Shown piece by piece: positions 7,241 through 29,058 of a stretch of DNA of 64,000 bases. Position 1 is the first letter of the stretch. Each line of letters begins with the position of its first letter. Both the position numbers and the translations under genes were made by a program. The DNA lies in NCBI GenBank assembly GCA_963751815.1, contig CAVVVY010000009.1:9578-73577 (forward strand). The letters run 5' to 3'. This stretch comes from an uncultured Solirubrobacterales bacterium. Its GTDB lineage: Bacteria > Actinomycetota > Thermoleophilia > Solirubrobacterales > 70-9. The notes beneath the pieces were generated by a model. It worked only from the letters and a program-made list of their open reading frames with translations, had not been told where the DNA came from and searched no databases.

Positions 7241-7921
7241 CTAGCTCCGCAGCGCGCGCTTCGCCTCGTCGCCACCGAGGTAGGGCGTGAGGATGATCTG
7301 GACGAGAGCGGTGGTCAGCTCCGGCATCGGGCCGATCCGGTCGTTGGCGAGACACGATCCGACGATCGAGATCGCGGCGCCGACCGCGGCCTGCTCGGTG
7401 AGGTCGCTGGGCGACCGGGCGTCCGGGCAATTCCGGGAGCCGTCGCGCAGAAGTTCGACCAGCCACTCGTTGGCGGAGATCCCGTCGCGGGCCAGCTGCG
7501 GCTCCGAGGACGGGTGGCTCGAGGCGAGGATGAGACGCGCGTCCTGGGGGAACTCGGCGACGAAATCGAGCGCCGAGGCGACGCCGGCGGCGACGCCGCG
7601 CGGCCACTCCTGCTCGGCGGAGCAGGAGGTGACGATCGTCGCGTGGAGGCGGTCGAAGGCGCGCTGCTGGGCGGCGAGCAGGCAGTCGAATTTGTTGTCG
7701 AAGATCTCGTAGAAGGTCCCGCGCGAGACCCCTGCCTGCTGGATCACATTGGCGACCGCCAGCGCGGCGTAACCCTGGTCGGAGAAGATTTCCGTCGCCG
7801 CGTCGAGCAGCCGGTCGCGCTGGTTCTCGGTGACGAGCGCCTGCGGAATCCCGTGGCGGCCCCGCGGGAGGCGGGATCCGTATTCGACTCCCTCGACGAC
7901 GATCGTGCCCTCGTAGCTCAT
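7241..7921 (-). CDS. TetR family transcriptional regulator
   Basis: HTH region NQRDRLLDAATEIFSDQGYAALAVANVIQQAGVSRGTFYEIFDNKFDCLLAA. I place the start at ATG 7921 (MSYEGTIVVEG...) because the ORF-track start at 7957 lies inside the promoter-like motif. The -10-like hexamer ends 7 nt before this ATG, which suggests a leaderless mRNA. Confidence 0.8.
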   Translation of the reverse strand: MSYEGTIVVEGVEYGSRLPRGRHGIPQALVTENQRDRLLDAATEIFSDQGYAALAVANVIQQAGVSRGTFYEIFDNKFDCLLAAQQRAFDRLHATIVTSCSAEQEWPRGVAAGVASALDFVAEFPQDARLILASSHPSSEPQLARDGISANEWLVELLRDGSRNCPDARSPSDLTEQAAVGAAISIVGSCLANDRIGPMPELTTALVQIILTPYLGGDEAKRALRS

Positions 7922-7926
7922 GTCCA

Positions 7927-7960
7927 GAATAAGAACATGAACGGACCCGTAAGTCAAGGG
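7927..7960 (-). promoter_or_regulatory. Conserved promoter/operator-like motif, copy 1
   Basis: The minus strand reads CCCTTGACTTACGGGTCCGTTCATGTTCTTATTC. That gives TTGACT, a 17-nt spacer and TCTTAT, with the core GGTCCG-N5-GTTC inside the spacer and -10 region. Confidence 0.5.
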
Positions 7961-8009
7961 TAAATTCTAAAAAGAGGCTAATTCGTGCGTGAAGAAACCG
8001 TACGAGCCT

Positions 8010-8525
8010 CTACCTAAGGCCCCGATACGGCAAAAGAATCAGGTACGCCAGGTCCGGAGCGAGGTCCGGAAGCTGCTTGGCGGAGCCGATCACGAGGTGG
8101 CTGCGGACGATCATCGCGATCGAGGCGACCATCGCCCTGTCGGCGGCGATCGGGAACAGCTTCTCGTCGGGCGCCGCATCGTGGAGCAGCTGCGTGAAGT
8201 AGGCGATCACGTCGTCCTGGCGGTCGACGGCGGAGTCGGCGGCGCGCGCTTCGATCGTCAGCGCCCTGGCCTCCGCCGGATGCGCGGCGGCGAACTCGAG
8301 CGCGGCGCGGACGCCGGCCGCGACCCGGGCCTCCCACCCGGTGACGCGGCCGCATGCGCCCTCGACCTCTCCCTGGAGCTGCCCGAAGCTGGTCGAGAAA
8401 CCCTCCCCCTGGGCACGCCTGCCGATCGGAGCCGGAGCGGCTTCGCGACGGCTCGTCCTGCTCCCGTTCGGGTGCGCGGCCGCTTTGGCCGATTGCCACT
8501 CCCTTGTTGGTCTGGGGACGTGCAT
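8010..8525 (-). CDS. TetR C-terminal-domain-like protein lacking the HTH
   Basis: From ATG 8525 the sequence is MHVPRPTREWQSAKAAAHPNGSRTSRREAAPAPIGRRAQGEGFSTSFGQLQGEVEGACGRVTGWEARVAAGVRAALEFAAAHP... This aligns with residues after the HTH of the 7241..7921 product (QQRAFDRLHATIVTSCSAEQEWPRGVAAGVASALDFVAEFP). Only about 45 aa precede that point, and no frame encodes an HTH. Confidence 0.5.
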   Translation of the reverse strand: MHVPRPTREWQSAKAAAHPNGSRTSRREAAPAPIGRRAQGEGFSTSFGQLQGEVEGACGRVTGWEARVAAGVRAALEFAAAHPAEARALTIEARAADSAVDRQDDVIAYFTQLLHDAAPDEKLFPIAADRAMVASIAMIVRSHLVIGSAKQLPDLAPDLAYLILLPYRGLR

Positions 8526-8537
8526 CGAGGTCGGAAT

Positions 8538-8571
8538 CAATAAGAACATATGCGGACCCGTTCTGTCAAGG
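8538..8571 (-). promoter_or_regulatory. Conserved promoter/operator-like motif, copy 2
   Basis: The minus strand reads GCCTTGACAGAACGGGTCCGCATATGTTCTTATTG. That gives TTGACA, an 18-nt spacer and TCTTAT, with the same GGTCCG-N5-GTTC core. It sits 14 nt upstream of ATG 8525. Confidence 0.5.
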
Positions 8572-8629: not shown

Positions 8630-8671
8630 TAGCGGAAAACGGGAAACGAAAAGGGCTCGAAATATCGAGCC
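8630..8671 (-). terminator. Intrinsic terminator after the last operon gene (F)
   Basis: The minus strand reads GGCTCGA-TATT-TCGAGCC (7-bp perfect stem, 8654-8671) followed by CTTTTCGTTTCCCGTTTTCC. It lies 35 nt downstream of the stop at 8706. Confidence 0.6.
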
Positions 8672-8705
8672 TGCGGCGTACCACTATGCCCCAATGCGCC
8701 GCGTC

Positions 8706-9536
8706 TCAGCGGACGCGGCAGCTGCGGACCGACTCGGTGACGATCTTCTCGCCGCCGGCGAAGCTGTAGGTGGCGCGCGCGAAGGAGAGGAAACCGGCCG
8801 AGAACCCCTCCGGCACCGGGCAGGAGGCGTTCAAATAGCTTTTCCGGTTGCCGGCGTGGTTGTAGATCCGCGAGACCTTGACCGCGAAGCTCGCGACGTG
8901 CGGCCAGGGCCCGACCGAGCGCCTGATCGTCGTCACCAGGACGGTCCGGTTGTCTTCGTTGCGGACCGTGAACGGGATCACGAACGAGGTCGGCGGATCC
9001 ATCGAGTAGGCGTGGGCCCAGACCGCCGGGCGCCCGGCTTTCGTGCGTCCGTTGAAGGTCAGCAGGTTGGCCCTGACCCGGAACGCCGGCTGGTTGGGGA
9101 CGAATATCTGCGCCGAGAGCTCGCCGCGGCCGACCAGCGAGTCGCCGCATGCTTCCGAGCGCCTGTTTGCGTCGTCGTGCTGGTCAGGCGTTCGCGGGGG
9201 CAGACCGGGAGGCCGTGGGTGTTCATCGCGCCCCGCCACGCGAGTTCGAGCCGGATCCAGTTGACCCGTCGGGATCGGCGAGCCGTCGGTGGTCTGGACC
9301 CCTCCGGAGAGGAAGACCGAGACCGGGACTTTTTCGTCTCGCGGAAGCTTCCGCGGCTTGATCCCGCCGTTGATCATCGCGATCACGTTTTCGCGCTGGG
9401 CGCGCTCGGCGCCGGCGGTTCCGGCCCAGCTCGCGACGGCGAGGAGGACGACCAGAGTCAGAGCGAGGCGAGCGCGTTTAGCCCGCAGCAAACGGACGAC
9501 CAGATGAACCTTCGGCCCGCCGTCCGGCTCGACCAT
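8706..9536 (-). CDS. Operon gene F: secreted or signal-anchored hypothetical protein, paralog of 1852..2658. The ORF is open but contains a compensated frameshift pair.
   Basis: 276-aa ORF with a hydrophobic N-terminus, LALTLVVLLAVASWAGTAGA. Between ~9262 and ~9175 a different frame matches the paralog much better: VNWIRLELAWRGAMNTHGLPVCPRERLTS aligns with SITLALNRNGHLETRGLPRCKKGELIA. The listed frame there gives QLDPARTRVAGRDEHPRPPGLPPRTPD. Confidence 0.7.
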   Translation of the reverse strand: MVEPDGGPKVHLVVRLLRAKRARLALTLVVLLAVASWAGTAGAERAQRENVIAMINGGIKPRKLPRDEKVPVSVFLSGGVQTTDGSPIPTGQLDPARTRVAGRDEHPRPPGLPPRTPDQHDDANRRSEACGDSLVGRGELSAQIFVPNQPAFRVRANLLTFNGRTKAGRPAVWAHAYSMDPPTSFVIPFTVRNEDNRTVLVTTIRRSVGPWPHVASFAVKVSRIYNHAGNRKSYLNASCPVPEGFSAGFLSFARATYSFAGGEKIVTESVRSCRVR

Positions 9537-9608
9537 TTCCTATTCGCTCTCCTCGTACTTCCCGTTTGCGCCCGACCCAATCGGGCGACGTTGAAGAAGA
9601 CACTAGCG

Positions 9609-9645
9609 CCTCTGAGAGGGGTTTGCGGTCCGCGTATGTTCCCAA
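9609..9645 (+). promoter_or_regulatory. Conserved motif, copy 5, in inverted orientation within the E-F intergenic region
   Basis: The plus strand reads CCTCTGAGAGGGGTTTGCGGTCCGCGTATGTTCCCAAAC. It shares CCTCTGAG and GGTCCG-N5-GTTC with copy 3 but has poor -35 and -10 hexamers. Confidence 0.35.
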
Positions 9646-9676
9646 ACCGTAAGAGACCGTAGGAGCAGGGAAATTG

Positions 9677-12426
9677 TCAGTGCCGCTTGCGCTTGGCGCC
9701 GCTTCGGATGCGACCGCAGGCGGTCTTCGGCGACCGTCTGGCTCGTTTCCCGACCGCTCTGGGCCGTGTAGGCGACTGCGATCTTCGGCGGCGAGGCGCA
9801 GAGGCTTCTTGTGTTGACCAGGTAGCCCTGTTTGCCGCCGAGGAGGTCGAGCTTGAAGTAGCCGATCGGCGCGTCCGGGATCACCGGGACGACCGTGGTC
9901 AGCTTGCCGCCCTTCGAGAAGGATTCAGCCTGCGGAACAAGCCGGACCTGGCCGTCGAGGATGAAGGCGAGACGAGGCAGCTTGCCGAAGCCCGGAGACC
10001 GCGTAGGCGGGGCCGCGTCAGCGGCGCGTCGAGCAGCGGCGTCCTCGTTTCGACCGTTCCGATCGGCTGGCGCCCGGCGCAGGATTCGGCTGCGAGCTGG
10101 GCTTTCGAGCAGATGTTGCCGAGGTGGCGCTGGTCGATCGCGAAGGCTTTCGGCAGGGTGACTGCGAGCGACTTGATGTTGGCGTCGCCGTTGCGGGTGC
10201 GGAGCTCGAACCGCATCCGCGGATTGCGGCTCCGCTTGGTGTCCTTGCGGGTGCCGAGCTGGCGGACGGTCATGCTCGGCTTGAACGGCAGGGCCGAGCA
10301 GTTGACCGCGTTGAAGGACGAGGAGAAGTCGGTAACCGTCCCCTGGTCGCCGATGCCCTGCGAGTCGACCGAGAAGGTCGAGCAGTTGGTCGGGTTGATC
10401 GTGAAGTTCGGCTTGTCGATGTTGACCTCGATCGAGCGCATCCGGATCGGGACGCCCGCCGATGATGCTCGGCACCGTGTCCGAGACCGCGCTCACCTGG
10501 GCGGTCAGCGGGTCGACGTGGAGGGCGACGCGGACGACGACGACGCCGTAGTCATAGGGCCCGGCCAGCGCCGGCGTGACCGCCGCCAGGCTGAGCGGCG
10601 CCCCCTTGAACGGGCCCGGAGAGGTACATCTTCCCGATCGCGTGGAACGGGTGGCCGCCGGGGCCGCGCGGCGACGTTGGTCGTGCCGATCTGGGACGAG
10701 GCGGGGCAGCTCGGGGTCGCCAGCTCGGCGCGGCCGAGCCTCTGGGCGGCGGCGAGGATCGCGGATTCCGGGCAGTAGCCGATGCCGCGCAGGTCGCCGG
10801 TGAAGCCGGGCGGCATCCTGAAGTTGAGGTCGCCGAGGAACTGGTCGCCGTCGTCGCGGTCGAGTTTGAGGTGGAAGTTGGAGAAGGCGCCGGCGTTGGG
10901 TTTGAGGTCCCCGCCTCGAGCCGCGGCTGGAACGGGCGGACCTGGCCCGGGCAGGGGCGCCGTGCGGGCCCTGGCGAGGCCGAAATGCTGCGTCGAGTCG
11001 ACGTCGGGAAGCGATTTCGTTCCAGGGGAAGAAGTGGCGCGCGAGGTCGTAGATCGTGCAGAGGGTCGGGGTCGCGACGAGGCCGCGATCGGAGGCGAAG
11101 AGGTGGATGTCGAAGTCTTCGAACGGGACCTGGGGCAGGTCTTCGAAGTAGACCGTGATCTGCCCGGTCTGGGGGTTCGGTCTGACCGACCCGACCAGCT
11201 TGGCGTGCATGCCGAACCCGTCGAAGATCATGAAGAGCCGGTACTGGTCGCCGGGCTTCGGTTCGCCGAAGTAAAGCGAGCCCTTGAGGCGCCCGTCGAG
11301 CGTCGGCGAGCCGACGCTGAGGGTCCCGATCTTGGCGTTGTCGGGGCATTTGGCCGGGCCCTCGGACCCGAAGTTGGCCTGCGCGTCGGTGCAGGCGCTC
11401 TGGCCGTCGGCGGCGTCCGGGTTGATCGTCAGCCCTTGCGGGAAGGTGACGACCGCGGACTTGATCTCCGAGGGTGAGGCGGCGAATCCCTCGAACTGCT
11501 GGCGCTGAGATTCAGGTCGAGGCCCGACGGCCGAATCGGTTTCGTTGGTCGTCGGACTGGCCGTGGAGCAGCGGTTTGAACGTCTCCGCTCAGCATCCGG
11601 TCATCTCCGGATAGGTGCTCTCGGCATGGGAGAAGTACGCCGGGGTCCTGGTAGGTCTCGACCAAGAGTTTGGTCACGAGGTTCATGGCCGCTGCAGTGG
11701 GTCGGGTTGTCGGTGAACGGCTTGTTGGGAATGCTCGCTTTCGTCGGCGACGGTGATGCAGCTTGCGTCGGCCAGCCCGGGGCAGCCGGCGGATTGCCCG
11801 GGGAGCCCTTGGCGAACCGGTCGTCGTTGTGACTGAGATCGGCGGGGAAGCCCCAGATCGTCAGGTTGACGCGCGGCGAGCGGTGTCAGCTGGGTGATGT
11901 CGGAGACCTTGAAGCGCAGCCCGTAGTCGGTCGCCGTGCGCACCGTGATCGGGATCGCGATCGGGATGTCCAGGGTCGGGACGATGAACTCGATCAGCGC
12001 CGTCTGATCCGCTTGGGGGAGATGTCGTAGAGGGGCGCCGTGCCGAGAAGGTACCGGAGTAGTCGGAGTACCGTGATCAGGCCGAGCTGGGAGTTGGCGG
12101 GCATTGATCGAGGGCGAAGTCCGCGGCGGTGCAGTTGGTGATCGCGTTGATGTTGCCGAACAGGCCCTGCGGGGCGTTGAAGGTGATGTTTTTGGCCGCC
12201 TCGGGGTTGCCGGGATTTTCGAGCGAGAAGTTCGTTTCCAGGTCGGGATGGCCGCCCGCCTGGGTGTAGGGCCCTCCCCCTGCGGGTCGGTCATCGTTGT
12301 CACGAATGATTCGATCTGCTCGCTCGCCATGACCGGCGCGGCCACCGCCAATGAGAGCGCGACTGCCGCCAACAGGGCTACGGTGATCGTTCTTGGGATC
12401 ATTCTTGTGGTCTCCTTGCCGATCAT
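9677..12426 (-). pseudogene. Operon gene E: paralog of gene C (QAGGHPD / Cys-loop family), heavily frameshifted with well over 10 frame changes
   Basis: ATG at 12426 lies 8 nt after the D stop. The signal peptide is MIGKETTRMIPRTITVALLAAVALSLAVAAPVMA. Conserved segments are scattered over all three frames. Examples are IESFVTTMTDPQ, AGGHPDLETNFSLENPGNPEAAKNITFNAPQGLFGNINAITNCTAADFALDQCPPNSQLG, VNLTIWGFPAD and FEGFAASPSEIKSAVVTFPQGLTINPDAADGQSACTDAQANFGSEGPAKCPDNAKIGTLSV. Further examples are MIFDGFGMHAKLVGSVRPNPQTGQITVYFEDLPQVPFEDF, MPPGFTGDLRGIGYCPE, FKGAPLSLAAVTPALAGPYDYGVVVVRVALHVDPLTAQV and PIRMRSIEVNIDKPNFTINPTNCSTFSV. The inferred end is PKTACGRIRSGAKRKRH* (stop at 9677-9679). Confidence 0.6.
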
Positions 12427-12433
12427 CAGCCGC

Positions 12434-15400
12434 TCACCGATCGCCGCGGGTCGAGTGGCGCCGAACGTGATGCTTCCTCCTGTGCTTGGGCTTCCTCACA
12501 CACTTGCCCTTGTGCTTGGAGAAGCCCTTCTTGCAGGCCCCCGACGGGGAGGAATTGCCCGGAGTCCCGGCGATCGTCCCGATCGGAGGCCGGGCAGGGG
12601 CCTGGGTCCCCGGTCCGTGACACTCGTCCGACGCTGCGCAGAGTGCGGGCGGGGGCACATCAAAGAAACCACCTTCAATGCGGGCGTCATAGATCTTCGT
12701 GACCGGGCCGTTCAGGTCCTCATGGGCAAGCGAATCGTGGGTGAAGAAGTAGGCGTCGGTGGCGTCCGCGCCCGCCGAGAGAAGTCCTGAATCGTGGGGG
12801 CTCGAGCCCGCAGAGATCAGGCTGAGACAGTTTCCTGTGAAGGCGAAGTAGTTCGGGTTGTTGTTGCTGGCGACACAGTTCCCAGTCCCGGGAGGCTCCC
12901 ACTCATAGACGTCTTTGCGCCCGTTGGAGTCCAGCAGCGCAATTGCATCGGTCGAGTCGAAGAAGACACGGCCATCGTCGGTCAGGCTGAGGCCGTTTGG
13001 CGCAAGACTCGAATCGCCGATCACTTCCCCGTTGGTCGGGCTGCAGGACACGCACTCCAGTTCCTGTTGGGGGACGTCATAGCGATAAAGCTCAGTGTGG
13101 CCACCGTTGTCGACCTGCGGCAGCAGTTTTTGAACCGAGGGGAAGACCGCATAATTCCCGTCGGGTGACACCTGGAAATCTTCCGTGTGCCGTACGTCGG
13201 CGTCCTTGATTGCACGAACAACGGTCGAATTGTCGATGGGGCCCGGCCGAGGAGTGAAAACGGCGATGTGGTCTCCCACCGATGCGTAGATGACGCCGGT
13301 GTTGCCATTGATCGCGACCCCGCGAGAGCCGGGCGCGATGTCGGCTGATCCGAAGGTCCTGAGCTTGTTCCCCGATGAGTCAAACCTCAAGAGCTGGGTG
13401 CCCTCGTCGACGTAGAAGTCTCCGTTGATCGCATCGGTTGAGACTGCATTCGCGTTGAGCGACACTTTGTTCGGTTGTGAGATTTGCCTGGGGAATCCAA
13501 GCGTCAGGTCGGAGGTATGGGCCAGCCACATTTCGCCGCTGCTGTACGTTTCGCCGAAGATGACGTTGCCCGAACCGGCAGCAATCTCACACGGATAGAG
13601 AACCGGGACGCCGAAACCTCCAAGGGTGAGACCTCCGGTGTAGTCGGTCTCTTTCGGGTACGCACCCGAGGGCGTGTAGCGCCAAACCTGATTCGAGTAG
13701 TCGCCGACGTAAACGCTGCCGGTGTCGTGGTCCACCGCAACTCCACACGACTCGCCGAATCCGCCGTTGTAGTTGCCGGAGCCATTCAGGGTCGACAGGT
13801 ACTCACCCGTTGAGTCGAAAATATCGATCCCTCCGAAACTGGCGACGTAGATGTTCCCGCTCGCCGGCCCTTTCGAATCGTCAACGGCCACCTCGGAGGC
13901 GGACGGGCCATCGAAGGCGAATGAGCCAAAGGGAGCGGGGAGCGTGTTGCCGGAGCACGTGCCGCAGGTGAAGTCGTCGGGACTTCCATCGGGCTTGTAG
14001 CGCGAGACCGTTCCTGCTGCCGAATCGACCACATAGACATCGCCGCTTGTCGAATTGCCGGTGCTCTGGTCGACCGTCAGGGCTTCGGCAGCCGTGAAGG
14101 ACCCGAACGTTCCTGAGAATTCGGCCGGCAGAGGTGGTTTTCCTACGGTCGTGTCGATGGTCGCGACGAAAGTGGGGAGAGGATCCCGGCCTGGCCACAT
14201 ACAGATTCGCCTGGTCCTGGGTGCCGTGCGTGGGACCGTCGAGCAACTCCGGCGAGAGGAAATAGATGGTGCCGTCTCCGGCTGCGACGCCGCCGGCGCC
14301 GCCGATTGCGACCGCGTCGCAGTTGTTTTCACCGGAGACCGAGTTCCAGCCCTCGGCCGGCGAGCAGGCGTCGGTGTCGCCGGTGCCGGAGCCTCCTGTC
14401 GAGAGCCTGGTCAGCTCGGCGCTTGTACTTCCAACGTCTGCCCTAAAGATGTCGGCGCTGGTGTCGTCGTCGGAGGCTCCTGAGGGCACATCGGTCGTCG
14501 TGAAGAACACCTTCGTGCCGTCCGAGGTCATTCCGTCATAGAGCGCGCCGTCGGGAGTGTTCGGCGTCAGTTGGACCGAATTCGGCACCCCGGCGATATG
14601 CATATAGAGGTCATAGAAGTGGTTGCCGGCAGCGTCCGTTGCGACAAGGTCGCCGATCAGGGTCCGCGATCCGTCCCCGGAGACATCGAGCTCGACGACG
14701 TTGGAGCCGTCGGCGAGGGCGCTGCCGGACGTATCGGTCGAAACGATTTCGGTGGTATGGGTTTGGAGGTCGCGGCTATAGATCGTCAGGTCGGAGTTGT
14801 TGCTGTTCGCTCCCGGCTCGAACGCCTGTTTCGAGCCGAACATGAAGTGGGAGCCATCGTCCGAGAACGACTTCTTCACGGTGCCCGCGGAGACCGGATT
14901 CGAGACCGGAATCGAACCGACCATCCCCTGGGTCAGCGTCCCGTCGGGCTGGTGGACCGGCACGCCCTGGCTGCCGTCCGCGAAGCACGGATTGCAGACG
15001 CCGGGGCCGCCGAAGGCGAAGACGCTCAGGCTGGCGTCGGCTCCCTGGAGGGACGAGGAGAACGGAGCCGCTGACGGCGCGTCGGCCGGAATGCCGACGT
15101 ATTGGGTCGTCCAGCCGCTGGGCCCGCGCGTCGCTACGTAGGGATCGATTCCGCGATTGGTCGGGTTGCCGCTGACACCGGGTATCGCGCCGTTGTGGAC
15201 GCCATATAGGACCTGTGAGGGGCTGCTTGCGCGCGGGTAGCCCGAGAATGGGGCCTGGCCCGGCACCAGGCTCGACTCCACGTCGTACCCTCCAGCGTGC
15301 GCAGCTGACACGAGCTCAAACGCCCGACAGTCCAGCAATTGCGTCGCCCCGGTCTGCTGGCGCGCCAGCTTGTTGGCGCAGGTGTCGCTCAGAGTGTCAT

Positions 15401-17508
15401 TGAACGGCTGCGTGGCAAAGACCTTGTCCGGCCCCGACACGCTTCCGACCGAGTTCGTCGCGACAACCCGGTAGTAGTAGGTGGTGTTCGGTTCGAGGCC
15501 CTCGTAGATCCTGCTCTGGCCATCGAAGATGGAGTTCGACCCGATGTGGGCGTCAGAGGCCGGCGTCGAGGCACAGGTGTTGGGCACATCGGAGCACGGG
15601 CTCGTCCCGAACTCGAAATGGTATGTCGTATCCGTGCCGCCCGGATTGACTTCGGTGTTGAATCTCACTCCGTTGGAGTGCACTGCGCTGACCGACTCCC
15701 TCACCTGCGGGAGAACAGGCGCAGTCTTGAGAAACTGGTCGTCGCTCGCGCTGCTGCCGGCAGCGTTGACGGCAACAATCCGAAAGTGATAGATGCTCGC
15801 CGGTTCGAGGCCACTGATGGGGTATTCCTCGGCGGCTTGCTCGCCTACGCCGGGTGAGCCTGCATCGTCTCCTGGCGGATTGGCGGATTTGTGGTTGTAG
15901 CTCGTCGTGGTCCCCCACTCGAAGTAGTAGTGCGTCGAACTTCCATCACCAGTGAAGGAGCCGTTGAGCGTCGCACTCGTCGAGGTGACATTGGTCGCAG
16001 GGTCGGCCCGCAACCCCACGACCTTGTGAAGGATGAATGTCTGATCGGGCCCCGACACCGTTCCTTCCGCGTTCGTGATCACCACCCGATAGTGGTACTC
16101 CGCCTCCGGAGTCAGCCCGCCGACGTCTGCATGAACTTCCGTTGAGCCACTGAAGCTACCCGCGCCCGGGTCGGGTGAACAGGTGGCAGTACCGTGAGAC
16201 GCTCCGCCTCCATACGGATTGGTGCTATCGGCTTGGTAGTCCGCGTCCGCGACGTAGTCGAAGTGGCACCCGCTGATCGCGGATGTGCCGTTGGGATCAA
16301 CCGTGGCGTTCAGCGTGATCGAGGTCGCGCCCAGATTGGATTCGGGTTTGTAGGCGACCGACTCCATCGCCGGGCGCGGGCTGTAGATGTCGACGACCCC
16401 GTGGGTGCCATCGTTGACATACAGATAGCCTTGAGAGTTGACGGCCAACCCGACGACGAAGTCGTAGCAGTAGATGCTCGCGGGCGGGTTGAGGCCGCCG
16501 AAGCACTGGTAACCGAATTCCCCGGCGGGCGCGTCGGAGCCGTCGATGTGGCCGAGATATTCTCCCGACGGAGAGAATTCGTCGACCCAGAAGTTTGCTC
16601 TGTCGGATACGAGGATGTTTTCATTGGTCGGGTCGATCGCGATCCCCCGAATCCCGCAAAGTCTCCCCCCCAGTCGGGGGTCGACGCCGCGGGCGTGTTT
16701 GGGTTCGAAGGGACTCCGGAGGAAGCCGCGGTGATCCGCCGGATGAAAACACCGCTCGGCGCGAACTCGTATATGCCGCGGTTTGTCGGGTTATAGGCGC
16801 CAGCATCGGTGACCCAAATATTGCCGTGGGAATCGACCGCTATCCCTGCCCGATATCGGAATACTGGTCGCCTCCGGCGTATTGCGAAAAGCTTCCATAG
16901 GGTGACCCGGTGATCTTGTTTCCAACGATGTAGCTGGAATTACCCGAGAAGTTGACCGGGTTACCGTAACCATCGAAGACCTGAATGAAGTTATTTCCGT
17001 AGAGGTAGACCCGCCCTCTCGACGGGCCGTTAGTGTTGTCGACCGCAGTGTTGAGCTCGGTGGAGGGTTCCGCCCCCTTCATCTGACCATAGAATTCGCC
17101 GAAATTATCGAAGATGTTGTAATTGAACTGGCCCCCCGGGACCGGGGCGTAGAGAAAGCCGTTCGAGTCGTTGAAGGACGGGCCGTGGACCTGGTTTCCA
17201 CCACCCCACCGACCACCTCCGTCCTGTTCTCCGATCTTTGTATGCGTCGGATAGGCGTCGTAGTGAGTCAGCACGCTGCCCCTCCCGACGTCGGAGATCC
17301 AAACCGAGTCGTCGCCGCTGTGATCGACGAAAACGCCTCCGGGCTTGCCGAAGCCGGTTATCTGGGAGTCATATGTTCGAGGAGCGAACGCCCCGAACGC
17401 AGGGCTGACAGCGCCTGCCAGCACAACAAGAATCGCGCACAGGGTCGCGAGGCCGGCTACTCGCGGGTAAGCCCGGGCTGAATTCGCCGACTTGGAGTGC
17501 ATCTTCAT
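12434..17508 (-). pseudogene. Operon gene D: ~1690-aa secreted protein with three frame changes. Modules in order: NHL-like propeller, 3 fn3/PKD-like units, TolB-like propeller, second NHL-like propeller, TolB-like module, Cys/His/Lys tail.
   Basis: The RBS AAGGGAG lies just upstream of ATG 17508. The signal peptide is MKMHSKSANSARAYPRVAGLATLCAILVVLAGAVSPAFG. The gene joins several pieces. The first is 16840..17508, part of ORF 16840..18222. The second is an unlisted frame at ~16645-16850 (GIAVDSHGNIWVTDAGAYNPTNRGIYEFAPSG). The third is ORF 13881..16448, whose frame is open upstream to ~16645. The fourth is ORF 12434..14332, which is real from ~14175 (VATIDTTVGKPPLPAEFSG). Frame changes fall at ~16850, ~16650 (next to G runs) and ~14175. 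Confidence 0.7.
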
Positions 17509-17531
17509 TGGCTCCCTTGGTCTCAACATGC

Positions 17532-23200: not shown

Positions 23201-24825
23201 GGGCCCGTAGTTGAAGTACCAGTGCGTCGTTTCATTGGTGCCTTCATAGGAGGCGTTCAGTTTCGCCGCGCCCCGGGTGACTTCGGTTGCCGGCTGTGTG
23301 ACGAGATTGGGGACTGCCAGCTGGGTCGTGAATGACTGGTCAGTCCCTTTGCTGATCCCTTTGGAGTTTTCCGCGACGATCTGGAAGTGATAGGTGTGCG
23401 CCGGTTCCAGGCCCGTGGCTTCGAAGGACAGCGGAGTCGCTCCGACCGTCGGGCCTTCGACCGCGCCGGGCGGAATTGCGGACTGTTGTCCGTACGCCGT
23501 CGTGGGCCCGTAGTTGAAGTACCAGTGCGTCGTTTCATTGGTGCCTTCATAGGAGGCGTTCAGTGTCGCTGTGGTACGTGTGACTTCTGTCGCCGGCTGT
23601 GTGACCAGGCTCGTCACAAAATGTGGCGTGAAGGTTCTGTCTGCGCTCGTGTTGCTGCCACTCGCGTTCCCCACTTTGAGACGGAAGTGGTAGAGGGTCT
23701 CGCCCGTCACGGCACCCGTCACGTCGGCGGTTACATCCTGTTCGCTGGCGTAATTGGGGCCGGGTGAGCAGGGAGCAGTCGCTGGGCTGCTGTAGTTGGC
23801 GGAGGTCGAGAATTCGAACACGCAACTGGTGACTTCACCCCCACCCGCCGGGTCGACGTGGCCGTGCAGCGTCGCCAGGCCCGTCGGTTCGCTGGTTGTG
23901 ACATCCGGCACGATCACGCCGGGGAATCGTTTGATCTTGCTGTTGCTGGCGTCGGCGACAAAGACGTCTCCGCTGGCCTCGTCGATCGCTATCCCCCTAT
24001 AGCTCCCCCCAAGCCCGGACGCAAATTCCTCGATCAGAGTCCCGGTTCGGTTCATACACGCTTACGTTTCCCGTCTGGGCGACATAGACCCGATGGCTCG
24101 TGGCGTCAACGGCCAGGGCCTGGGTGCTGCCCGTACTCACCTGGTTGAATGACGTGTATCCGCTGGCCGCCGTGAACCTGTAGACGGGCCCGTTGTAGTT
24201 GGCGCTGAGAAAGGTCGCCGTTGGCACGGTCGAAGGCGATGTGGCAGGGTCGGCCAGAGCCGGCGCCGGAGACACTGATCGAACCTTCCGAGGATCCGGT
24301 CGAACTGTATTTCTTCACCGATTGGGTGCCGTAGTCGCCAACCCAGGCGTGACCGCTGCCGTCGGTCGCGGCGCCGCAGGGATCGCCAAAGCCGCTGACC
24401 GAGAAGATGCTCGAGCCAGTGGAGGTGAACCCATAAAGGCCACTGTTCTCCGATACGAAGTAGATGTTGCCATTACCGCTGTCGACGGCGAGGTCGGGCA
24501 CTGACCCGGGGGGATTCACAGTGAACGGGAAGCCACCGAGAGGCGTGTAGGTGCCGGGCGTCGATGCGTCGAAGCCGTAGACTCGCGACGAGCCTGAGTC
24601 GAGGACATAAAGGCGGTGCGTGGCCTCGTTGAAGGTGAGAGGCCCGGTGGACCCGGAGAAGCTGGTAGCTCCGGTCCCGTCGGTCCCAAAGGAAGAGGTC
24701 GCAGTCGGGTGGACGAACGCCGCCGACGCCGAGCTCGCTGCAATGGCCAGCATCGATGCCGTGACGGCGATGAGAATTCCAACTCGGTGCGTCATTCGCC
24801 CTCTCTTGTCTCGTCTTTCAGCCAT
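20262..24825 (-). pseudogene. Operon gene B: ~1520-aa secreted protein with three frame changes. Modules in order: NHL-like propeller, 5 fn3/PKD-like units, TolB-like propeller, Cys motif and basic His-rich tail.
   Basis: The pieces 24106..24825, 23997..24275, 21044..24055 and 20262..21287 join into one protein. They are MAERRDKRGRMTHRVGILIAVTASMLAIAASSASA..., FLSANYNGPVYRFTAASGY..., MNRTGTLIEEFASGLGG... (1003 aa) and ...DIFNLQYTDQLGGAGGNPQFENIVAPGNGDIYFISPEQLDG...KIYDARTGGGFAFVPPPPGCAAADECHG...KKKPRKSHRRHRLHGKSHSRGHGNG. Frame changes fall at ~24215, ~24040 (an extra C in AACCGGG relative to the gene A paralog YEPNGKLIEEF) and ~21250. The start overlaps the A stop (ATGGCTGA). Confidence 0.7.
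23061..23666 (-). repeat. Two tandem 303-bp near-identical copies inside gene B, each encoding one fn3/PKD-like unit
   Basis: gagttttccgcgacgatctggaagtgataggtgtgc occurs at 23061 and at 23364. An identical run of over 60 nt, ccgtcgtgggcccgtagttgaagtaccagtgcgtcgtttcattggtgccttcataggaggcgttcagt, is in both copies. The encoded units are LVTQPATEVTR..A.LNASYEGTNETTHWYFNYGPTTAYGQQ.AIPPGAV.GPT.G.TPLSFE.TGLE..HTYHFQIVAENS.G.SKGTD.SFTT. Confidence 0.8.
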
Positions 24826-27145
24826 GCTTGGCGCCCCTCTGCTTGTGGTGGCGTTTGCGACGGTGCTTCTTCTTCACGCATTTGCCCTGCTTCTTGACGA
24901 AACCGGACTTGCAGGCGGTGGTGGGGGCCGATGGGCCGGCGGGCGCCGCCGTCGTGAAGACCTGATCGGGGCTGGCGACCCTGCCGTTCCCGTTGACGGC
25001 GACGATGCGGTAGTGGTAGGTGGTTCCGGGGGCAAGGCCGGACACGGCCGCGCTGACCGAATGCGCGGAGTTGTCCGCCCCCACCGATGGATCGTCCGGC
25101 GTGCTCGAGCCGTAGGAGTCGCTGGTCCCGTACTCGAAGTGGTAGGTCGTGGCGCTGAGGCCGGGATTGACGACCGCGCCGAGGGTCGCGGAGGTCTGAG
25201 CTATCGCCGACGCCGCGAGCGAGTCGACGCGCGGCGCGGAGGGGGTGGTGAAGGTTTCGTCCGGCCCTCGCACCGTGCCGCTGAAGTTGGTGGCGACGAC
25301 ACGGAAATGGTATGTGCCTCCCGGCACGAGATCGGAGACATCGGCGCTTGCGGTGTGGAACTGGGCGTCGGCAGGGGTCGGGCCACCGGGATAGGTCTGC
25401 GTTTCATATGACGTGGTGAGCCCATACTGGAAGCGATAGACGGTGGGCCCCGAGCCCGGATTGATCGAGGAACTGAGCGTTGCGCTGCTCTTGGTGACGG
25501 ACGCAGCGGAGGTGCTCGCGATCACGGGTAGATCGGGCGGTGTGGTCACGACCACCTGGTCTTCACCGTAGTTGTAGCCGAAGGAATTGTGCGCGACCAA
25601 TCGGTAGTGGTAGGTCCCGTTCGCTTCGAGATCGGTCAGGTTCGCGCTGACGTTTTGGGGCCCGGTACCGCTTCCGTTGCTGACGCCCGGGGGCACGGCT
25701 GTCGTTTTGCCGTATTTCGTGTCGAGCCCGTATTCAAAGAGGTACTGAATATCGGCACCATCGCCGTTGTAGACGCCATTGAGGGTTGCGGTGAATTTCG
25801 TGATGCCGGTCGCCATACCCGTGGTGACGCCCCCCACCGCGATGGGCGTCCTGAAGGTCGCGTCTTCTCCCGGGTGCGGATAGCTGGCATTCGCGACGAC
25901 GAGTCGGAAGTGATATCCGGTGTCCGCCGTGAGGCTCGATAGATCGGCGTGGACATCGGTTTGCGTCGTGATCGGGTTGCCCGGGGTGCCGACCACCGCG
26001 CCGTTGCCATTCCGGCAGCCGACGCTCCCCAAGCCGTAGCTCGTGTCGGTGCCGTAGTCGAAATGACAATCGACGACGTTGCCGGCGCCCGCCGGGTCCA
26101 CGTGCCCACGAAGCGTGACCGACGTCCTGGTCAGGCTGGAAACTGAGCTGTTGGACGCATCGGGCACGCTGATGCCGGGGAAGACGCGGACCTTGCCGCC
26201 GCCGTTGGCATCGGTGAGATAGACGTCGCCGGTCGTGGAGTCGACGGCAACTCCCGTCCAGTTTGCGCCGAGCCCGGTCCCGAATTCCTCGATCAGTTTC
26301 CCGTTTGGTTCGTATGCGAAGACGGAACTGGATGCGGCGATGTAGATCGTGTGGGTATTCGAATCGACGGCAACTCCGGTCGTCTGCCCGAATGTGATCG
26401 GCATGCTTTCGGTGTATCCGCTGCTGTTCGGGTAGCGGCGGATGCCGCCGCTGTATTCGCCCACATACATGTCGTCGTTGGACTGGTCGAACGCGAGGCG
26501 GCATGGACTCGACGAGGGGGTGCCATCTGCAGTGCCGGTGAAGACCCCCGCCGAGGTGTACCTGAGGATCGGCTTCGAATAGAAGTTGCCGACCCAGATG
26601 CTGCCTCCGGCATCGACGGCCGACCCGCAGATGTATTCCGACACGCCTGCGGGATAGGTGGGGTCGATCGGGAAGTTGCCGCCGAGGGCGGACCCGGCGG
26701 AATCGAAGCCGGCGATCTTCCCGGTTTCGCCCGTGCCGGAGTAGTAGAGCTTGCCGGTGGCGCCATCGACGCTCATGCCGGCGTAGGGGCCCCCGGCTTC
26801 GACGTTGATCGGGAAGTTGCCGGTCAGCGGCGCGAAGGGGGCGGGAGTGGAGGTGGTGTCGAAGCCGTAGATCCTCGGCGTGCCGGAGTCGTCCTCGACG
26901 TAGAGATGATGGGTGTTCTTGTCGACGGCGATCGCCCGGATCTGATTCGAGAAGGTCGTCCCCGACGTTCCATCCACGCCGAAGCTGGCTGTCTGGATGG
27001 TGTGGACGAAGGAGGCCGATGCCGACGAGACGGCGAGGACCAGCGGGACGAGGGCGGCGACGGCGACGGCGATCGAAAGGCGCCGCCCGCTGCGCGCGGC
27101 GAGGTCGCCGCTCAAAGCCATCGGCCGTCCCTTCGGGCGTCTCAT
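24818..27145 (-). CDS. Operon gene A: 775-aa secreted protein, intact. Modules in order: NHL-like propeller, 4 fn3/PKD-like units, Cys/Lys/His C-terminal tail.
   Basis: The RBS GGAAGGAG lies upstream of ATG 27145. The signal peptide is ...SGRRLSIAVAVAALVPLVLAVSSASA. Propeller blades include LYVEDDSGTPRIYGFD, SIWVGNFYSKPILRYTSAG and DVYLTDANGGGKVRVFPG. Four ~100-aa units carry TATLNG..N..G....Y.FEYG....YG and GT(Y/G)YH(F/Y)R(L/V)VA.N. The tail is CKSGFVKKQGKCVKKKHRRKRHHKQRGAKHG. Confidence 0.85.
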   Translation of the reverse strand: MRRPKGRPMALSGDLAARSGRRLSIAVAVAALVPLVLAVSSASASFVHTIQTASFGVDGTSGTTFSNQIRAIAVDKNTHHLYVEDDSGTPRIYGFDTTSTPAPFAPLTGNFPINVEAGGPYAGMSVDGATGKLYYSGTGETGKIAGFDSAGSALGGNFPIDPTYPAGVSEYICGSAVDAGGSIWVGNFYSKPILRYTSAGVFTGTADGTPSSSPCRLAFDQSNDDMYVGEYSGGIRRYPNSSGYTESMPITFGQTTGVAVDSNTHTIYIAASSSVFAYEPNGKLIEEFGTGLGANWTGVAVDSTTGDVYLTDANGGGKVRVFPGISVPDASNSSVSSLTRTSVTLRGHVDPAGAGNVVDCHFDYGTDTSYGLGSVGCRNGNGAVVGTPGNPITTQTDVHADLSSLTADTGYHFRLVVANASYPHPGEDATFRTPIAVGGVTTGMATGITKFTATLNGVYNGDGADIQYLFEYGLDTKYGKTTAVPPGVSNGSGTGPQNVSANLTDLEANGTYHYRLVAHNSFGYNYGEDQVVVTTPPDLPVIASTSAASVTKSSATLSSSINPGSGPTVYRFQYGLTTSYETQTYPGGPTPADAQFHTASADVSDLVPGGTYHFRVVATNFSGTVRGPDETFTTPSAPRVDSLAASAIAQTSATLGAVVNPGLSATTYHFEYGTSDSYGSSTPDDPSVGADNSAHSVSAAVSGLAPGTTYHYRIVAVNGNGRVASPDQVFTTAAPAGPSAPTTACKSGFVKKQGKCVKKKHRRKRHHKQRGAKHG

Positions 27146-27288
27146 CGCTCTCCTTCCCTTGTCCCCTGGCCACCCGCCGTCGGCCCCGACCCGCTGTGCG
27201 AGTCCCCTGGCCCCGGGCCGGGTGGCCCATTTACTTTTCTCTCCCGCCCTCCGGGTGGCGCTTGCGAGCGCTCCCCCTCAGGCGGCCG

Positions 27289-27322
27289 TAATGAGAACAC
27301 AAACGGACCAGGATGTCAAGCC
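27289..27322 (-). promoter_or_regulatory. Conserved promoter/operator-like motif, copy 4, proximal to operon gene A
   Basis: The minus strand reads GGGCTTGACATCCTGGTCCGTTTGTGTTCTCATT. That gives TTGACA, a 17-nt spacer and TCTCAT, with the core GGTCCG-N5-GTTC. It sits about 140 nt upstream of ATG 27145. Confidence 0.5.
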
Positions 27323-27433
27323 CGTCTTTTCGGTAGAGGCAGCTCCTTCACATCATCTGGCTTTGTAGAGGGGTTTCCATTACAGCGATCGGTGCATAGT
27401 CGGCCAGAAAAAGAGTTTCCAACGTACCGGAAG

Positions 27434-27565: not shown

Positions 27566-27580
27566 CTTTTGACGCAAAAG
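27566..27580. promoter_or_regulatory. 15-bp palindrome CTTTTG-ACG-CAAAAG
   Basis: Read directly from the sequence. It is AT-rich, unlike the surrounding genome, and sits between the operon and the divergent TetR gene. Confidence 0.3.
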
Positions 27581-27598
27581 CCATTGCGGGTACCATTT

Positions 27599-27632
27599 CA
27601 ATAAGAACTTTAGCGGACCAATAACTCAGAGG
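27599..27632 (-). promoter_or_regulatory. Conserved promoter/operator-like motif, copy 3, distal to operon gene A
   Basis: The minus strand reads CCTCTGAGTTATTGGTCCGCTAAAGTTCTTATTG. It has the same core and TCTTAT hexamer but a weak -35 (CTGAGT). Confidence 0.4.
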
Positions 27633-27722
27633 TAAACCCAGAGGAGTCTTAGGAACCAGGCAGTATCTAGACCCCTGAATAGAGTCGGTGTCGTACCGTA
27701 AAAATTGGCTCTGCGAGCGAGC

Positions 27723-27752
27723 TTGAGTGACGTATGCGTACCCGGCTATGGT
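27723..27752 (+). promoter_or_regulatory. Putative sigma70-like promoter of the double-TetR gene (near-leaderless)
   Basis: TTGAGT (27723-27728), an 18-nt spacer and TATGGT (27747-27752). The ATG at 27762 is 9 nt downstream. Confidence 0.35.
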
Positions 27753-27761
27753 GGTGCCAGG

Positions 27762-29058
27762 ATGGTGCAGACGCCCTGGGGGGACTCACTCGCCCTCCGC
27801 TCCAAGAAGATGCGCCCGGGCCGAGGAAACGTGCCCGAGGATTCGCGACGCAGCCAGCGCGAGCGGTTGTTCGGCGCAATGGTCTCCATTAGCTCGGAAA
27901 AGGGCTATGAGGCGACGCGGATTGCGGACCTCGTGAAGATGGCCGGCGTCTCCCGCGCCGCCTTTTACGAGCACTTTGAGGATAAGAAGGAGTGCCTATT
28001 GGCGGCGGTCGACGCCCTGGTCGAGCCGACCATCGCGCTGATGGAGCGGGCCGAGGACGCGCCGACCGGTGAGGCCCGGGTGCGGCAGGCCGTCGAAGCC
28101 TTCCTCGGCCTGGTCGCGAGGCAGCCGGCCGCGTCGCGGATGATCTTCATCGAGGTCTACGCCGCGGGGCCGGAGGGGGAAGCGGCGGTGGAAAGGGTGC
28201 TGGACACCTTCGAGCGATTCGGCGTCAGCCAGCTGAACCAGATCCGGGGCCGCGAAGCGATGCCGCCGCAGATGGTCCGGGCGATGCTCGGCGGATTCCA
28301 GAAGGTGATCGAGAAGCGCCTCTACAGCGAGGAAGCCGACCAGCTGCCGCGGATCGCGGAGGACATCGCCAACTGGGGGCTGTCCTACCCGCCGCCGCCC
28401 GGCCCGCTCGATGCGCCGCGCCGGCGGGGCAGAAAACCGCGCACGTTCGCCGAGCGCCAGGCGGTCGCCCACCCGCCCGGAGCGGGTCCTGCGGGCGCTG
28501 GCGGCGACGGTCGCCGAGAAGGGCTACAAGGAGACGACCGTCGCCGAGGTGGTCGACCGGGCCGGGACCTCCCACAGGGTCTTCTACGGGCACTTCGCGA
28601 ACAAAGAAGAAGCGCTCCTCGCCGCCCTCGACAGCGGCTCGGCGCAGATGCTGGCCGCGGTCCTCCCCGCCTTCCGCCGCGCCCGCAGCTGGCAGGAGTC
28701 GGTGCGGGCCGCCTACGAGGCGATGTTCGCGTTCGGGATCGAAGAGCCCGAGTACACCCAGCTCGGCGCGGTCGAGATGTACACGGTCGGCAAGCGGGCG
28801 CTGCAGACGCGCGACACGGTGATGGAAGGCCTCGAGGCGCTGCTGGTCCCCGGCTATGAGCTCTCCCCCGACACGCCGCCGATCGCGGCCGAGGCAATCG
28901 GCGGCGCGATCTACGCGCTGATCCACGACCAGGTCAAGAGAAAAGGCCCGGAAAGCATGCCCGAACTGGCGCCGATGGCCACCTACATGACGCTGGCGCC
29001 GTTCGTCGGCGCCGAGGAGGCCTACGAACGGGCGATCGAGGAGAGCGACAAATGGTGA
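27762..29058 (+). pseudogene. Tandem double-TetR regulator: two complete TetR modules joined across one frame change at ~28470-28480
   Basis: Module 1 is in ORF 27705..28859, with HTH RERLFGAMVSISSEKGYEATRIADLVKMAGVSRAAFYEHFEDKKECLLAA. Module 2 is ORF 28411..29058, with HTH ERVLRALAATVAEKGYKETTVAEVVDRAGTSHRVFYGHFANKEEALLAA. Module 1 has no stop in its frame. The RGR..P arm that precedes the HTH in the related regulators (PRGRHGIP, RPGRGNVP) is encoded for module 2 (RRGRKPRT) in the frame of module 1. Confidence 0.7.

Follow-up and report, generated by a model that had tools for sequence, protein, structure and literature searches.

A putative 31-bp promoter-operator module shared by TetR-subfamily genes and giant secreted proteins in Solirubrobacterales

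The 64,000-nucleotide stretch of DNA analysed here (the window hereafter; positions 9,578 to 73,577 of contig CAVVVY010000009.1, assembly GCA_963751815.1) belongs to an uncultured bacterium of the order Solirubrobacterales and carries five copies (c1 to c5) of the motif GGTCCG-N5-GTTC, here called the core, beside genes of one TetR subfamily and an operon of large secreted proteins. Re-reading the window placed all five copies where, and on the strands on which, a preliminary description of this DNA had located them (c1, c2, c3 and c4 on the minus strand, c5 on the plus strand); its intervals held, although the strings it gave for c2 and c5 were 1-2 nt longer than those intervals. An exact-pattern scan for GGTCCG, exactly 5 nt and GTTC returns these five sites only, against 0.63 expected, and none of 100 dinucleotide-preserving shuffles reached five. 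As allowing one mismatch brings no excess (12 observed vs 11.8 expected), the five exact copies represent the complete local set.

Three of the copies are full modules, in which the core is preceded by TTGAC[AT] and followed by TCT[TC]ATT at the spacing first described. Copy c1 (7927..7960, core 7933-7947, minus strand) reads TTGACT-N4-GGTCCG-TTCAT-GTTCTTATT and precedes the gene for TetR1 (7241..7921, minus strand), an apparently leaderless, single-domain TetR regulator of 226 amino acids (aa) with a GC content at third codon positions (GC3) of 0.92, whose ATG at 7921 indeed falls 7 nt past TCTTAT. Copy c2 (8538..8571, core 8544-8558, minus strand) reads TTGACAGAACG-GGTCCG-CATAT-GTTCTTATT and stands in front of a gene (8010..8525, minus strand; GC3 0.87) for a 171-aa TetR-like protein that consists of the C-terminal ligand/dimerisation domain only and has no helix-turn-helix (HTH) domain. 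Copy c4 (27289..27322, core 27295-27309, minus strand), with the sequence TTGACATCCT-GGTCCG-TTTGT-GTTCTCATT, lies 143 nt 5' of the ATG of gene A at 27145, close to the 140 nt or so estimated before. Gene A (24818..27145, minus strand; Pfam NHL, SGL, fn3 and a PhoD_N-like match) is the first gene of an operon (9603-27145, minus strand) encoding a row of large secreted NHL, fn3 and beta-propeller proteins.

The remaining two copies lack the promoter-like parts. Copy c3 (27599..27632, core 27605-27619, minus strand) consists of the core and TTATT, without a -35 hexamer and without TG; it lies 310 nt upstream of c4 and 143 nt from the ATG of a divergently oriented gene for a fused double-TetR regulator (27762..29058, plus strand). 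The proposed role as a promoter thus concerns c1, c2 and c4, while c3 is better described as a core-only site beside the divergent double-TetR gene. Copy c5 (9609..9645, core 9627-9641, plus strand) has neither a -35 hexamer nor TYATT, is flanked by GGTTTG and CAAACC, which are able to pair, and is inverted between genes E and F, as had been noted. Gene F (8706..9536, minus strand; 276 aa, GC3 0.86, no Pfam family) starts about 90 nt downstream of c5. In the gene E region (9603-11400, minus strand) the highest GC3 shifts repeatedly from one frame to another, for which reason the annotated 542-aa open reading frame (ORF; 9603-11231) was rejected as the real gene E and is probably an indel artefact; a conserved ...KRKRH* ending places the true stop probably at 9677-9679. 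Since the frame switches imply that the assembly carries indels, c5 is most likely intergenic, with the stop of E (9677-9679) on one side and the first codon of F (9536) on the other. Behind gene F, a terminator-like hairpin with a T-rich tail (8654-8671, minus strand; GGCTCGATATTTCGAGCC) suggests that this gene ends a transcription unit ahead of the putative c2 promoter.

The TetR-like proteins of the locus are related to each other. Matches to the N-terminal HTH domain of the TetR family (Pfam TetR_N, PF00440) are found in 7241-7921 (E 2.9e-12), 27705-28859 (7e-11) and 28411-29058 (1.9e-11). The 8010-8525 protein had no TetR_N match and a weak TetR_C_33 match in the Pfam search, and it shares 29% identity over 129 aa with the C-terminal domain of TetR1 (E 4e-4). 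Each half of the double TetR shows homology to TetR1 and to the HTH-less protein alike, so that all are mutually homologous, and they have a C-terminal ..PEL..LLPYLG..EA tail in common. All three subfamily genes of the window have a core in front, and across the loci collected from other genomes (labelled L plus a number below) a subfamily gene lies within 450 nt of 100 of 124 motif sites (81%), compared with 19% of random positions in the same loci. The local link between the TetR genes and the operon, which had been proposed from the window, gains support from this, and the group of genes concerned extends well beyond it.

This wider distribution emerged from a scan of one genome per species (185,579 species, 596 Gb) for TTGAC-N5/6-GGTCCG-N5-GTTCTYATT, which found the full pattern at no fewer than 117 loci, where about 4 would be expected by chance (our estimate, which takes 19.5 bases as specified and allows for either strand and either gap length). 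Among the matches listed, 116 are metagenome-assembled genomes of Solirubrobacterales or Thermoleophilia type. The full pattern had no match in viral contigs, and a phage origin was rejected on this ground. Within the fetched loci (900 kb in total), 127 of 135 occurrences of GTTCTYATT have GGTCCG exactly 5 nt upstream, a coupling which indicates that the three blocks act as one unit, with the full form C-TTGACA-N4-GGTCCG-YnTnT-GTTCTYATT. A conservation profile was computed on 110 non-redundant sites, and several positions that the search left unconstrained proved to be fixed or nearly so: T at +10 (110/110), T at +8 (100/110), Y at +6 and T at -1, as well as the A completing TTGACA (89/110) and the C before it (90/110). 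Conservation ends sharply, with none beyond -11 to +19, so that the unit measures about 31 bp. No relevant report was found in the literature on a Solirubrobacter promoter motif or on GGTCCG in connection with TetR.

Alignment of the orthologous c1 and c2 regions from 8 genomes gives the same picture at the level of single loci, in that the module forms an invariant island amid diverged intergenic DNA; c1 is invariant across the 8 loci with its flanks diverged, and c2 is kept in 8 loci. The order, orientations and spacings of c5, c2 and c1 are retained in four genomes, and the c3-c4 arrangement, with the copies 308-314 bp apart, in five others. Copy c4 is kept in L026, L066, L067, L073 and L104, and c3 together with its own flanks in L026, L066, L067, L070, L073 and L104. 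Copy c5 taken alone would be compatible with chance, given 0.63 expected per window, but it is intergenic and conserved in four orthologous loci (L118, L119, L120 and L123), which keep the 32-nt block TTTGCGGTCCGCnnATGTTCCCAAACCGyAAG and its position relative to c2 and c1. All 15 contigs of more than 0.5 Mb with two or more seeded loci among the matches listed have these loci within 64 kb (e.g. OY969925.1 at 224-248 kb and OY968772.1 at 1968-1992 kb). The motif thus marks one super-locus per genome, beside defined gene families, and is not the generic, randomly dispersed repeat that the preliminary description had named as the finding that would speak against its proposal. Taken together, these comparisons indicate that what was found at c1, c2 and c4 is a putative promoter-plus-repressor-site module of about 31 bp common across soil actinobacteria of the order Solirubrobacterales.

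The geometry of the full module is that of a promoter. TTGACA is followed, after 17 bp (18 in c2-type sites), by the hexamer TCTYAT, with TG one base before it. With respect to the canonical sigma-70 consensus, the -35 element and the 16-18 bp spacer are present (only TTGAC was required by the seed, and the sixth base is A at 89/110 sites), whereas the -10 hexamer departs from the form that has A as its second and T as its sixth base; of the hexamers suggested earlier, the -10 element thus lacks the canonical A at -11. In all TetR1 orthologues, at a fixed distance in 9 loci, the ATG falls 5-6 nt past TYATT, no Shine-Dalgarno sequence precedes it and the conserved coding sequence begins at exactly this codon, which is apparently the layout expected for a leaderless transcript. 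The 110 sites show a purine peak at +26. Elsewhere the module stands directly in front of a non-coding RNA (described below), and it is difficult to account for a conserved signal in such a position except as a promoter. These observations support the view that the full module acts as a sigma-70-type promoter with a TG-extended -10. Two other signals were considered and discarded. TTCACG-18-TAGAAT, which the sigma-70 scan called just upstream of c1, is attributed to chance as its -10 is not conserved in orthologues, and a sigma-54 promoter (GG-N10-GC) was ruled out by inspection because the GC at -12 is absent.

The core also appears to be separable from this promoter. Copies of the c3 type lack the -35 hexamer and copies of the c5 type lack both it and TYATT, and both types are kept with their flanks in orthologues. 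Conservation of the core without promoter hexamers points to a protein-binding site in its own right. The starts of its halves (GGTC.. and GTTC) are separated by 11 bp, which would put both halves on one face of the helix. When GGTCCGYnTnTGTTCT is set against its reverse complement, no more than about 2 of 6 conserved positions per half agree, so that the core is not the palindrome of a homodimer operator. CGGTCCG occurs in c5 only, and a restriction or methylation site was rejected as an explanation. Directly in front of c3 in the plus direction, a candidate canonical promoter from the consensus scan (TTGACG-16-TACCAT, 27569..27596, plus strand) points to the double-TetR gene, with the c3 core at about +1 to +17; the flank containing it is conserved in c3-type loci, and c3 may hence be an operator in this setting as well, for a second promoter in front of the regulator gene. 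Sites of the c2 type (8544-8571 and orthologues) contain an inverted repeat, AGAAC-N12-GTTCT, and in sites of the c1 type (7933-7947 and orthologues) the N5 is always TTCnT, giving GTTC-nT-GTTC. Such extras might be sites for a different, homodimeric member of the family.

Upstream of many cores lies a second element, box 2, with the consensus agtGGTACG-N5-GnCTc, which is related to the core in degenerate form and oriented like it. GGTACG is found 111-140 bp upstream, in motif orientation, at 65 of 128 motif sites; it is not enriched window-wide (13 observed vs 17 expected), and its weight lies in its local placement alone. The box 2 of c2 (GTGGTACG-CCGCA-GGCTC, 8667..8685, minus strand, with GGTACG at 8677-8682) lies about 124 bp upstream of the c2 core and overlaps the terminator-like hairpin after gene F; its GGTAC is invariant in 8 loci. 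That of c4 (27423..27428, minus strand) lies 119 bp upstream of the c4 core and recurs at an equivalent position (117-121) in L026, L067 and L073. No regulator gene starts at either of these two boxes. The double-TetR gene has its own box 2, CGTACC (27692-27697, plus strand), at exactly -70 from its ATG, and a further box 2 position in the window is 27737-27742. Distances from core to box 2 cluster at 75-79, 119-124 and 130-133 bp. Their helical phasing (resultant length 0.47-0.58, and 0.21 on unique distances) is suggestive rather than demonstrated, and common descent of the loci confounds it. Box 2 may be an auxiliary operator, in the manner of the paired sites of the double TetR Mce3R, or, just as well, the operator proper of the double TetR.

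The candidate reader of the core is the double TetR. The preliminary description had named the regulators encoded at 7241..7921 and 27762..29058 as candidate binders, and the latter is here corrected to one fused double-TetR gene of Mce3R-like architecture. Its two TetR_N matches lie in two frames, as the gene is split by one inserted nucleotide at about 28479, a G within CCCGGAG that L104, L026 and L073 lack; the insertion is either an assembly error or the mark of a pseudogene. Orthologues are single ORFs of 431-432 aa with both HTHs, and the fusion is intact in 41 of the 42 copies extracted from related loci; one such protein (P0001) is 97% identical to the window copy. Database relatives number at least 1,621 at E <= 1e-20, with lengths of 392-479 aa, and are named "AcrR family" only. 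The control region of the gene (27692..27752, plus strand) has TTGAGT at 27723-27728 and, after a spacer of 18 nt, TATGGT at 27747-27752; since the ATG follows 9 nt on, the gene would be leaderless or nearly so. The arrangement aGTC-N5-CGTACC...tGAG-17-TATnnT-9-ATG is common to 48 paralogues, in 35 of which CGTACC stands at -70. In the motif-seeded loci, 54 of 55 double-TetR genes have a divergent core, at 139-144 or 182-199 nt from the ATG.

An AlphaFold2 model of the double TetR (pLDDT 88.8, pTM 0.87) has the fold of an intramolecular, asymmetric pseudo-dimer. Its top Foldseek match in the PDB is Mce3R (9b7y_A; 407 aligned columns, TM 0.55/0.60, E 3e-9), and the other matches cover one half each. 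Two TetR modules in one polypeptide are thus present in the orthologues and, interrupted, in the window copy. The protein is not an orthologue of Mce3R (Rv1963c), as a phmmer comparison with 9b7y gave E 7.7e-6 over the HTH only and the structural alignment has 16% identity. None of the NCBIfam equivalogs reached its cut-off. To our knowledge, Mce3R is the only double TetR with a solved DNA complex and was structurally explained only in 2024. Its monomer carries two non-identical HTHs about 32 Å apart in an asymmetric pseudo-dimer, and its operator is non-palindromic, with 25 bp and two sites 53 bp apart, the homodimer bridging two DNAs (PMC11667970). For a protein of the Mce3R kind, an asymmetric core with an 11-bp half spacing is the sort of target to expect. 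Over 40 paralogues the two recognition helices show high conservation, in line with an invariant DNA site.

A reciprocal set of 79 double-TetR loci was fetched by protein similarity alone, and the core was sought divergently within 700 nt. It does not accompany every double-TetR gene, being present at 37 of the 79. Its presence follows the recognition helix of domain B: with the helix type TS[QH]R a core was found in 33 of 52 cases, with ISLS or NSLV in 0 of 22 (Fisher p = 7e-8, kinship ignored). This split fits direct reading of the core by the domain-B helix. A separate clade of double TetRs (L168-L196, e.g. OY970304.1, OY969581.1 and OY970329.1) has the ISLS helix in module B and about one member per complete chromosome, and the core is never nearby.

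The reading that we consider somewhat probable is that the full copies are composite promoter-operators and that a TetR-subfamily repressor, most probably the double TetR 27762-29058, reads the core. A housekeeping-type sigma polymerase would use TTGACA, the 17-18 bp spacer and the TG-extended -10 (TGT-TCTYAT-T), and the 15-bp non-palindromic operator GGTCCG-N5-GTTC would be embedded from about -26 to -12 relative to the presumed transcription start. The double TetR, folded like Mce3R as an intramolecular pseudo-dimer, would place its two different HTH heads on one half-site each, occlude the -10 region and so repress transcription until released by a ligand. The copies c3, next to the gene of the regulator itself, and c5, between E and F within the operon, would be extra binding sites without promoter function, and box 2 (GGTACG-N5-GnCT), about 75-135 bp upstream, a weaker auxiliary operator for looping or cooperative binding. 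TetR1 and its HTH-less paralogue, members of the same subfamily and placed under the same promoter-operator, would probably modulate the system. The proposal of a promoter with a repressor site in its spacer and -10 region, tying the TetR genes to the operon, thus gains support from comparison among genomes, through the 31-bp conserved island, the fixed ATG distance in 9 loci, the non-coding RNA found downstream elsewhere and the association with the TetR subfamily.

Several observations weigh against this reading. On the promoter side, the hexamer TCTYAT has C, and never A, at position 2 (-11) at all 110 sites, and a canonical sigma-70 consensus scan of the window does not call c1, c2 or c4, as the C at this position makes such a scan miss them. 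Ordinary promoters of the lineage in the same loci look like TAnnnT, and the module promoter may therefore need something beyond the housekeeping holoenzyme. On the protein side, sequence similarity to Mce3R is weak (16% identity), and only 37 of the 79 double-TetR genes collected independently of the motif have a divergent core nearby, the others lacking any motif-like promoter. The correlation between helix type and site could reflect gene neighbourhoods specific to subfamilies, about 30 promoters of the small RNA have no adjacent double TetR, and several double-TetR paralogues per genome acting on one site would be unusual for repressors. Finally, box 2 rather than the core could be the operator of the double TetR, and TetR1 is equally well placed as a binder.

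These last two points combine into the first alternative, in which the same promoter-operator is read by TetR1 (7241-7921), as a homodimer or paired with its HTH-less paralogue, while the double TetR binds box 2 (CGTACC). The layout invites it: c1 sits directly on the TetR1 promoter as in classic autoregulation, genes of the TetR1-like or HTH-less kind follow 26 motif sites, TetR1 and domain A have similar recognition helices, and box 2 stands at exactly -70 of the double-TetR ATG in 35 of 48 cases. A homodimer would be expected on a palindrome, however, which the core is not, and a heterodimer with an HTH-less partner would leave a single DNA-reading head. TetR1 orthologues were moreover found in only 9 loci as opposed to at least 117 for the motif, and the presence of the core follows the domain-B helix type of the double TetR. 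Reading by TetR1 is accordingly unlikely, if still to be taken seriously.

Alternatively, the whole 31-bp unit could be a specialised promoter for an alternative (ECF-like) sigma factor or another polymerase-bound factor, with no separate repressor. This would account for the consistent lack of A at -11, the silence of the canonical scan and the TAnnnT form of ordinary promoters, and the invariance of three blocks and their spacing does resemble the regulon of a dedicated sigma; TTGAC-N16-GTTC, with GTTC as the -10, has an ECF-like spacing by our reading of the sequence. Such a two-block sigma motif leaves GGTCCG in the spacer and TYATT past GTTC unexplained, and the leaderless ATG, 11 nt past GTTC, is too far away for GTTC to serve as the -10. 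The core also persists at c3 and c5 without TTGAC and TYATT, and the genes seen to accompany the sites are of the TetR family, with no sigma gene among them. We regard a specialised promoter as rather improbable.

Perhaps slightly more doubtful is that the same protein binds the same site as an activator, helping to open a promoter with a defective -10 in the manner of FasR. The invariably non-canonical -10 region would suit such a role, and the activator FasR is the best NCBIfam match of both TetR1 and domain A of the double TetR, though at 91 and 53 bits against a cut-off of 330, which is not family membership. In promoter complexes, however, sigma regions 2 to 3 would be in the way of a protein that occupies the promoter face between -26 and -12. 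Nearly all characterised TetR-family proteins, including Mce3R, are repressors (PMC11667970). A dispersed repeat or recombination site (MITE/REP-like, or an invertase or integrase target) could be imagined from the many near-identical copies per genome region, the inverted c5 and targets that include large surface-protein families, often of a phase-variable kind, but is highly improbable, as nothing is conserved beyond 31 bp and terminal inverted repeats are missing, copies occupy orthologous positions in equal orientation across species, are always intergenic and point into a gene or RNA, cluster within 64 kb or less per genome, show no inversion variants among syntenic loci and are absent from viral contigs.

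The genes downstream of the motif give an impression of what a promoter-operator of the preferred kind would control. At 156 sites (core-only sites included) the targets comprise 46 genes for large secreted NHL/fn3 proteins of the gene A family, some 27-30 copies of a small RNA (sRNA), 26 TetR1-like or HTH-less genes, 7-8 genes for collagen-like, membrane-anchored proteins and 5 for YdeI-like proteins. The giant proteins have leaders of about 140 nt (27145-27288 in the window, and L003, L008, L042, L055, L094 and others) in which a hairpin is followed by GGCGGGAGAGA and GGAGAG recurs just ahead of the start codon. The sequence (M/V)RRHAKAxSAGS opens many of these proteins, and neither leader nor N-terminus matches a known family. 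The collagen-like proteins (GPAGPAG repeats) share the N-terminal anchor MLxRLRxQIGTAGL... and are found downstream of the motif in L032, L034, L036, L053, L056, L086, L096 and L117, and YdeI-like proteins in L072, L087 and L090. Proteins of about 140-180 aa with a TetR C-terminal domain only and no HTH are widespread (8010-8525 in the window, L105 and about 25 loci upstream of the sRNA, and L007, L025, L028, L072, L074 and L108), and their genes are either driven by the motif or adjoin it. A role as decoys or anti-repressors may be considered for such proteins.

The module is not followed by an ORF in about 30 genomes, where a unit of 95-153 nt ending in a terminator-like hairpin takes its place. 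Examples of this sRNA, all outside the window, are L049:7258-7406 (minus strand), L050:3321-3467 (plus strand) and L002:5002-5096 (minus strand), with about 27 further loci. It folds into two hairpins with C-rich loops (CCCUG), with compensatory changes in 14 of 20 pairs, and the gene immediately upstream of its promoter is always another HTH-less member of the TetR-like subfamily. Searches against Rfam 15 gave no match in the window, none in 18 loci at the gathering score and none in 7 sRNA loci at E <= 1, which indicates that neither the leaders nor the sRNA belong to known families.

A broader and distinctly tentative picture, which we offer as a possibility, is that of a super-locus, common to an entire uncultured lineage of soil actinobacteria, in which giant surface or secreted proteins, collagen-like proteins and a 6C-like sRNA are run from one invariant 31-bp promoter-operator read by several paralogous Mce3R-like double TetRs per genome, each possibly with a different ligand, with HTH-less paralogues as decoys or anti-repressors and the defective -10 (C at -11) as part of the switch. 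If true, this would amount to a logic of many sensors and one operator, which is not described for TetR regulators. Apart from this picture, the locus sets beside Mce3R a second and very large family of double TetRs (at least 1,621 proteins in the database), together with a candidate asymmetric operator of sharp outline, and the motif provides a first defined cis-regulatory signal for Solirubrobacterales, an abundant but almost uncultured soil group. The motif in addition delimits a putative regulon, made up of giant secreted NHL/fn3 proteins, proteins of the collagen-like kind, a new structured sRNA and HTH-less TetR paralogues, and it raises the question of promoter recognition, namely how a promoter without A at -11 is used. 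Should the motif be an ordinary repressor site, it would be a useful annotation and not a new principle.

Compared with known systems, a TetR-type operator within a promoter, read by a double TetR, would be of a familiar kind, while the invariant 31-bp module on many genes and paralogous regulators, the HTH-less paralogues, the new sRNA and the non-canonical -10 are unusual. Like classical TetR arrangements (TetR/tetO, QacR/IR1, KstR), a regulator gene with a TetR_N HTH adjoins its presumed target, would be autoregulated and has a putative operator that overlaps the -35 to -10 region. Classical operators, however, are palindromes read by homodimers, whereas the core is asymmetric (GGTCCG...GTTC), and unlike in those arrangements the site is practically invariant over more than 100 instances. 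As a promoter, the module resembles extended -10 (TGn) sigma-70 promoters in its TTGACA, its 17-18 bp spacer and the TG one base before the hexamer, but in TCTYAT a C replaces the near-universal A at -11; the ATG of TetR1, 5-7 nt past the hexamer, is placed as in leaderless actinobacterial genes. The 6C small RNA of Actinobacteria is built of two hairpins with C-rich loops. The motif-driven sRNA, with two hairpins and CCCUG loops, recalls this design; unlike 6C RNA (Rfam RF01066), it has no Rfam match even at E <= 1, is longer (95-153 nt) and always lies beside an HTH-less gene.

The closest comparison is with Mce3R of Mycobacterium tuberculosis (PDB 9b7y). Both regulators combine two fused TetR modules in a polypeptide of about 400-430 aa, both are encoded divergently from the operon that they control or would control, with the gene itself beside a site, and the two non-palindromic Mce3R sites tens of bp apart have their likeness here in the asymmetric core and the related box 2. 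The differences lie in the setting of the site, which here is embedded in an invariant promoter common to many genes and accompanied by many paralogous regulators, and in the targets: Mce3R acts on lipid-metabolism genes, whereas the binding predicted here would concern giant secreted NHL/fn3 proteins, collagen-like proteins and an sRNA.

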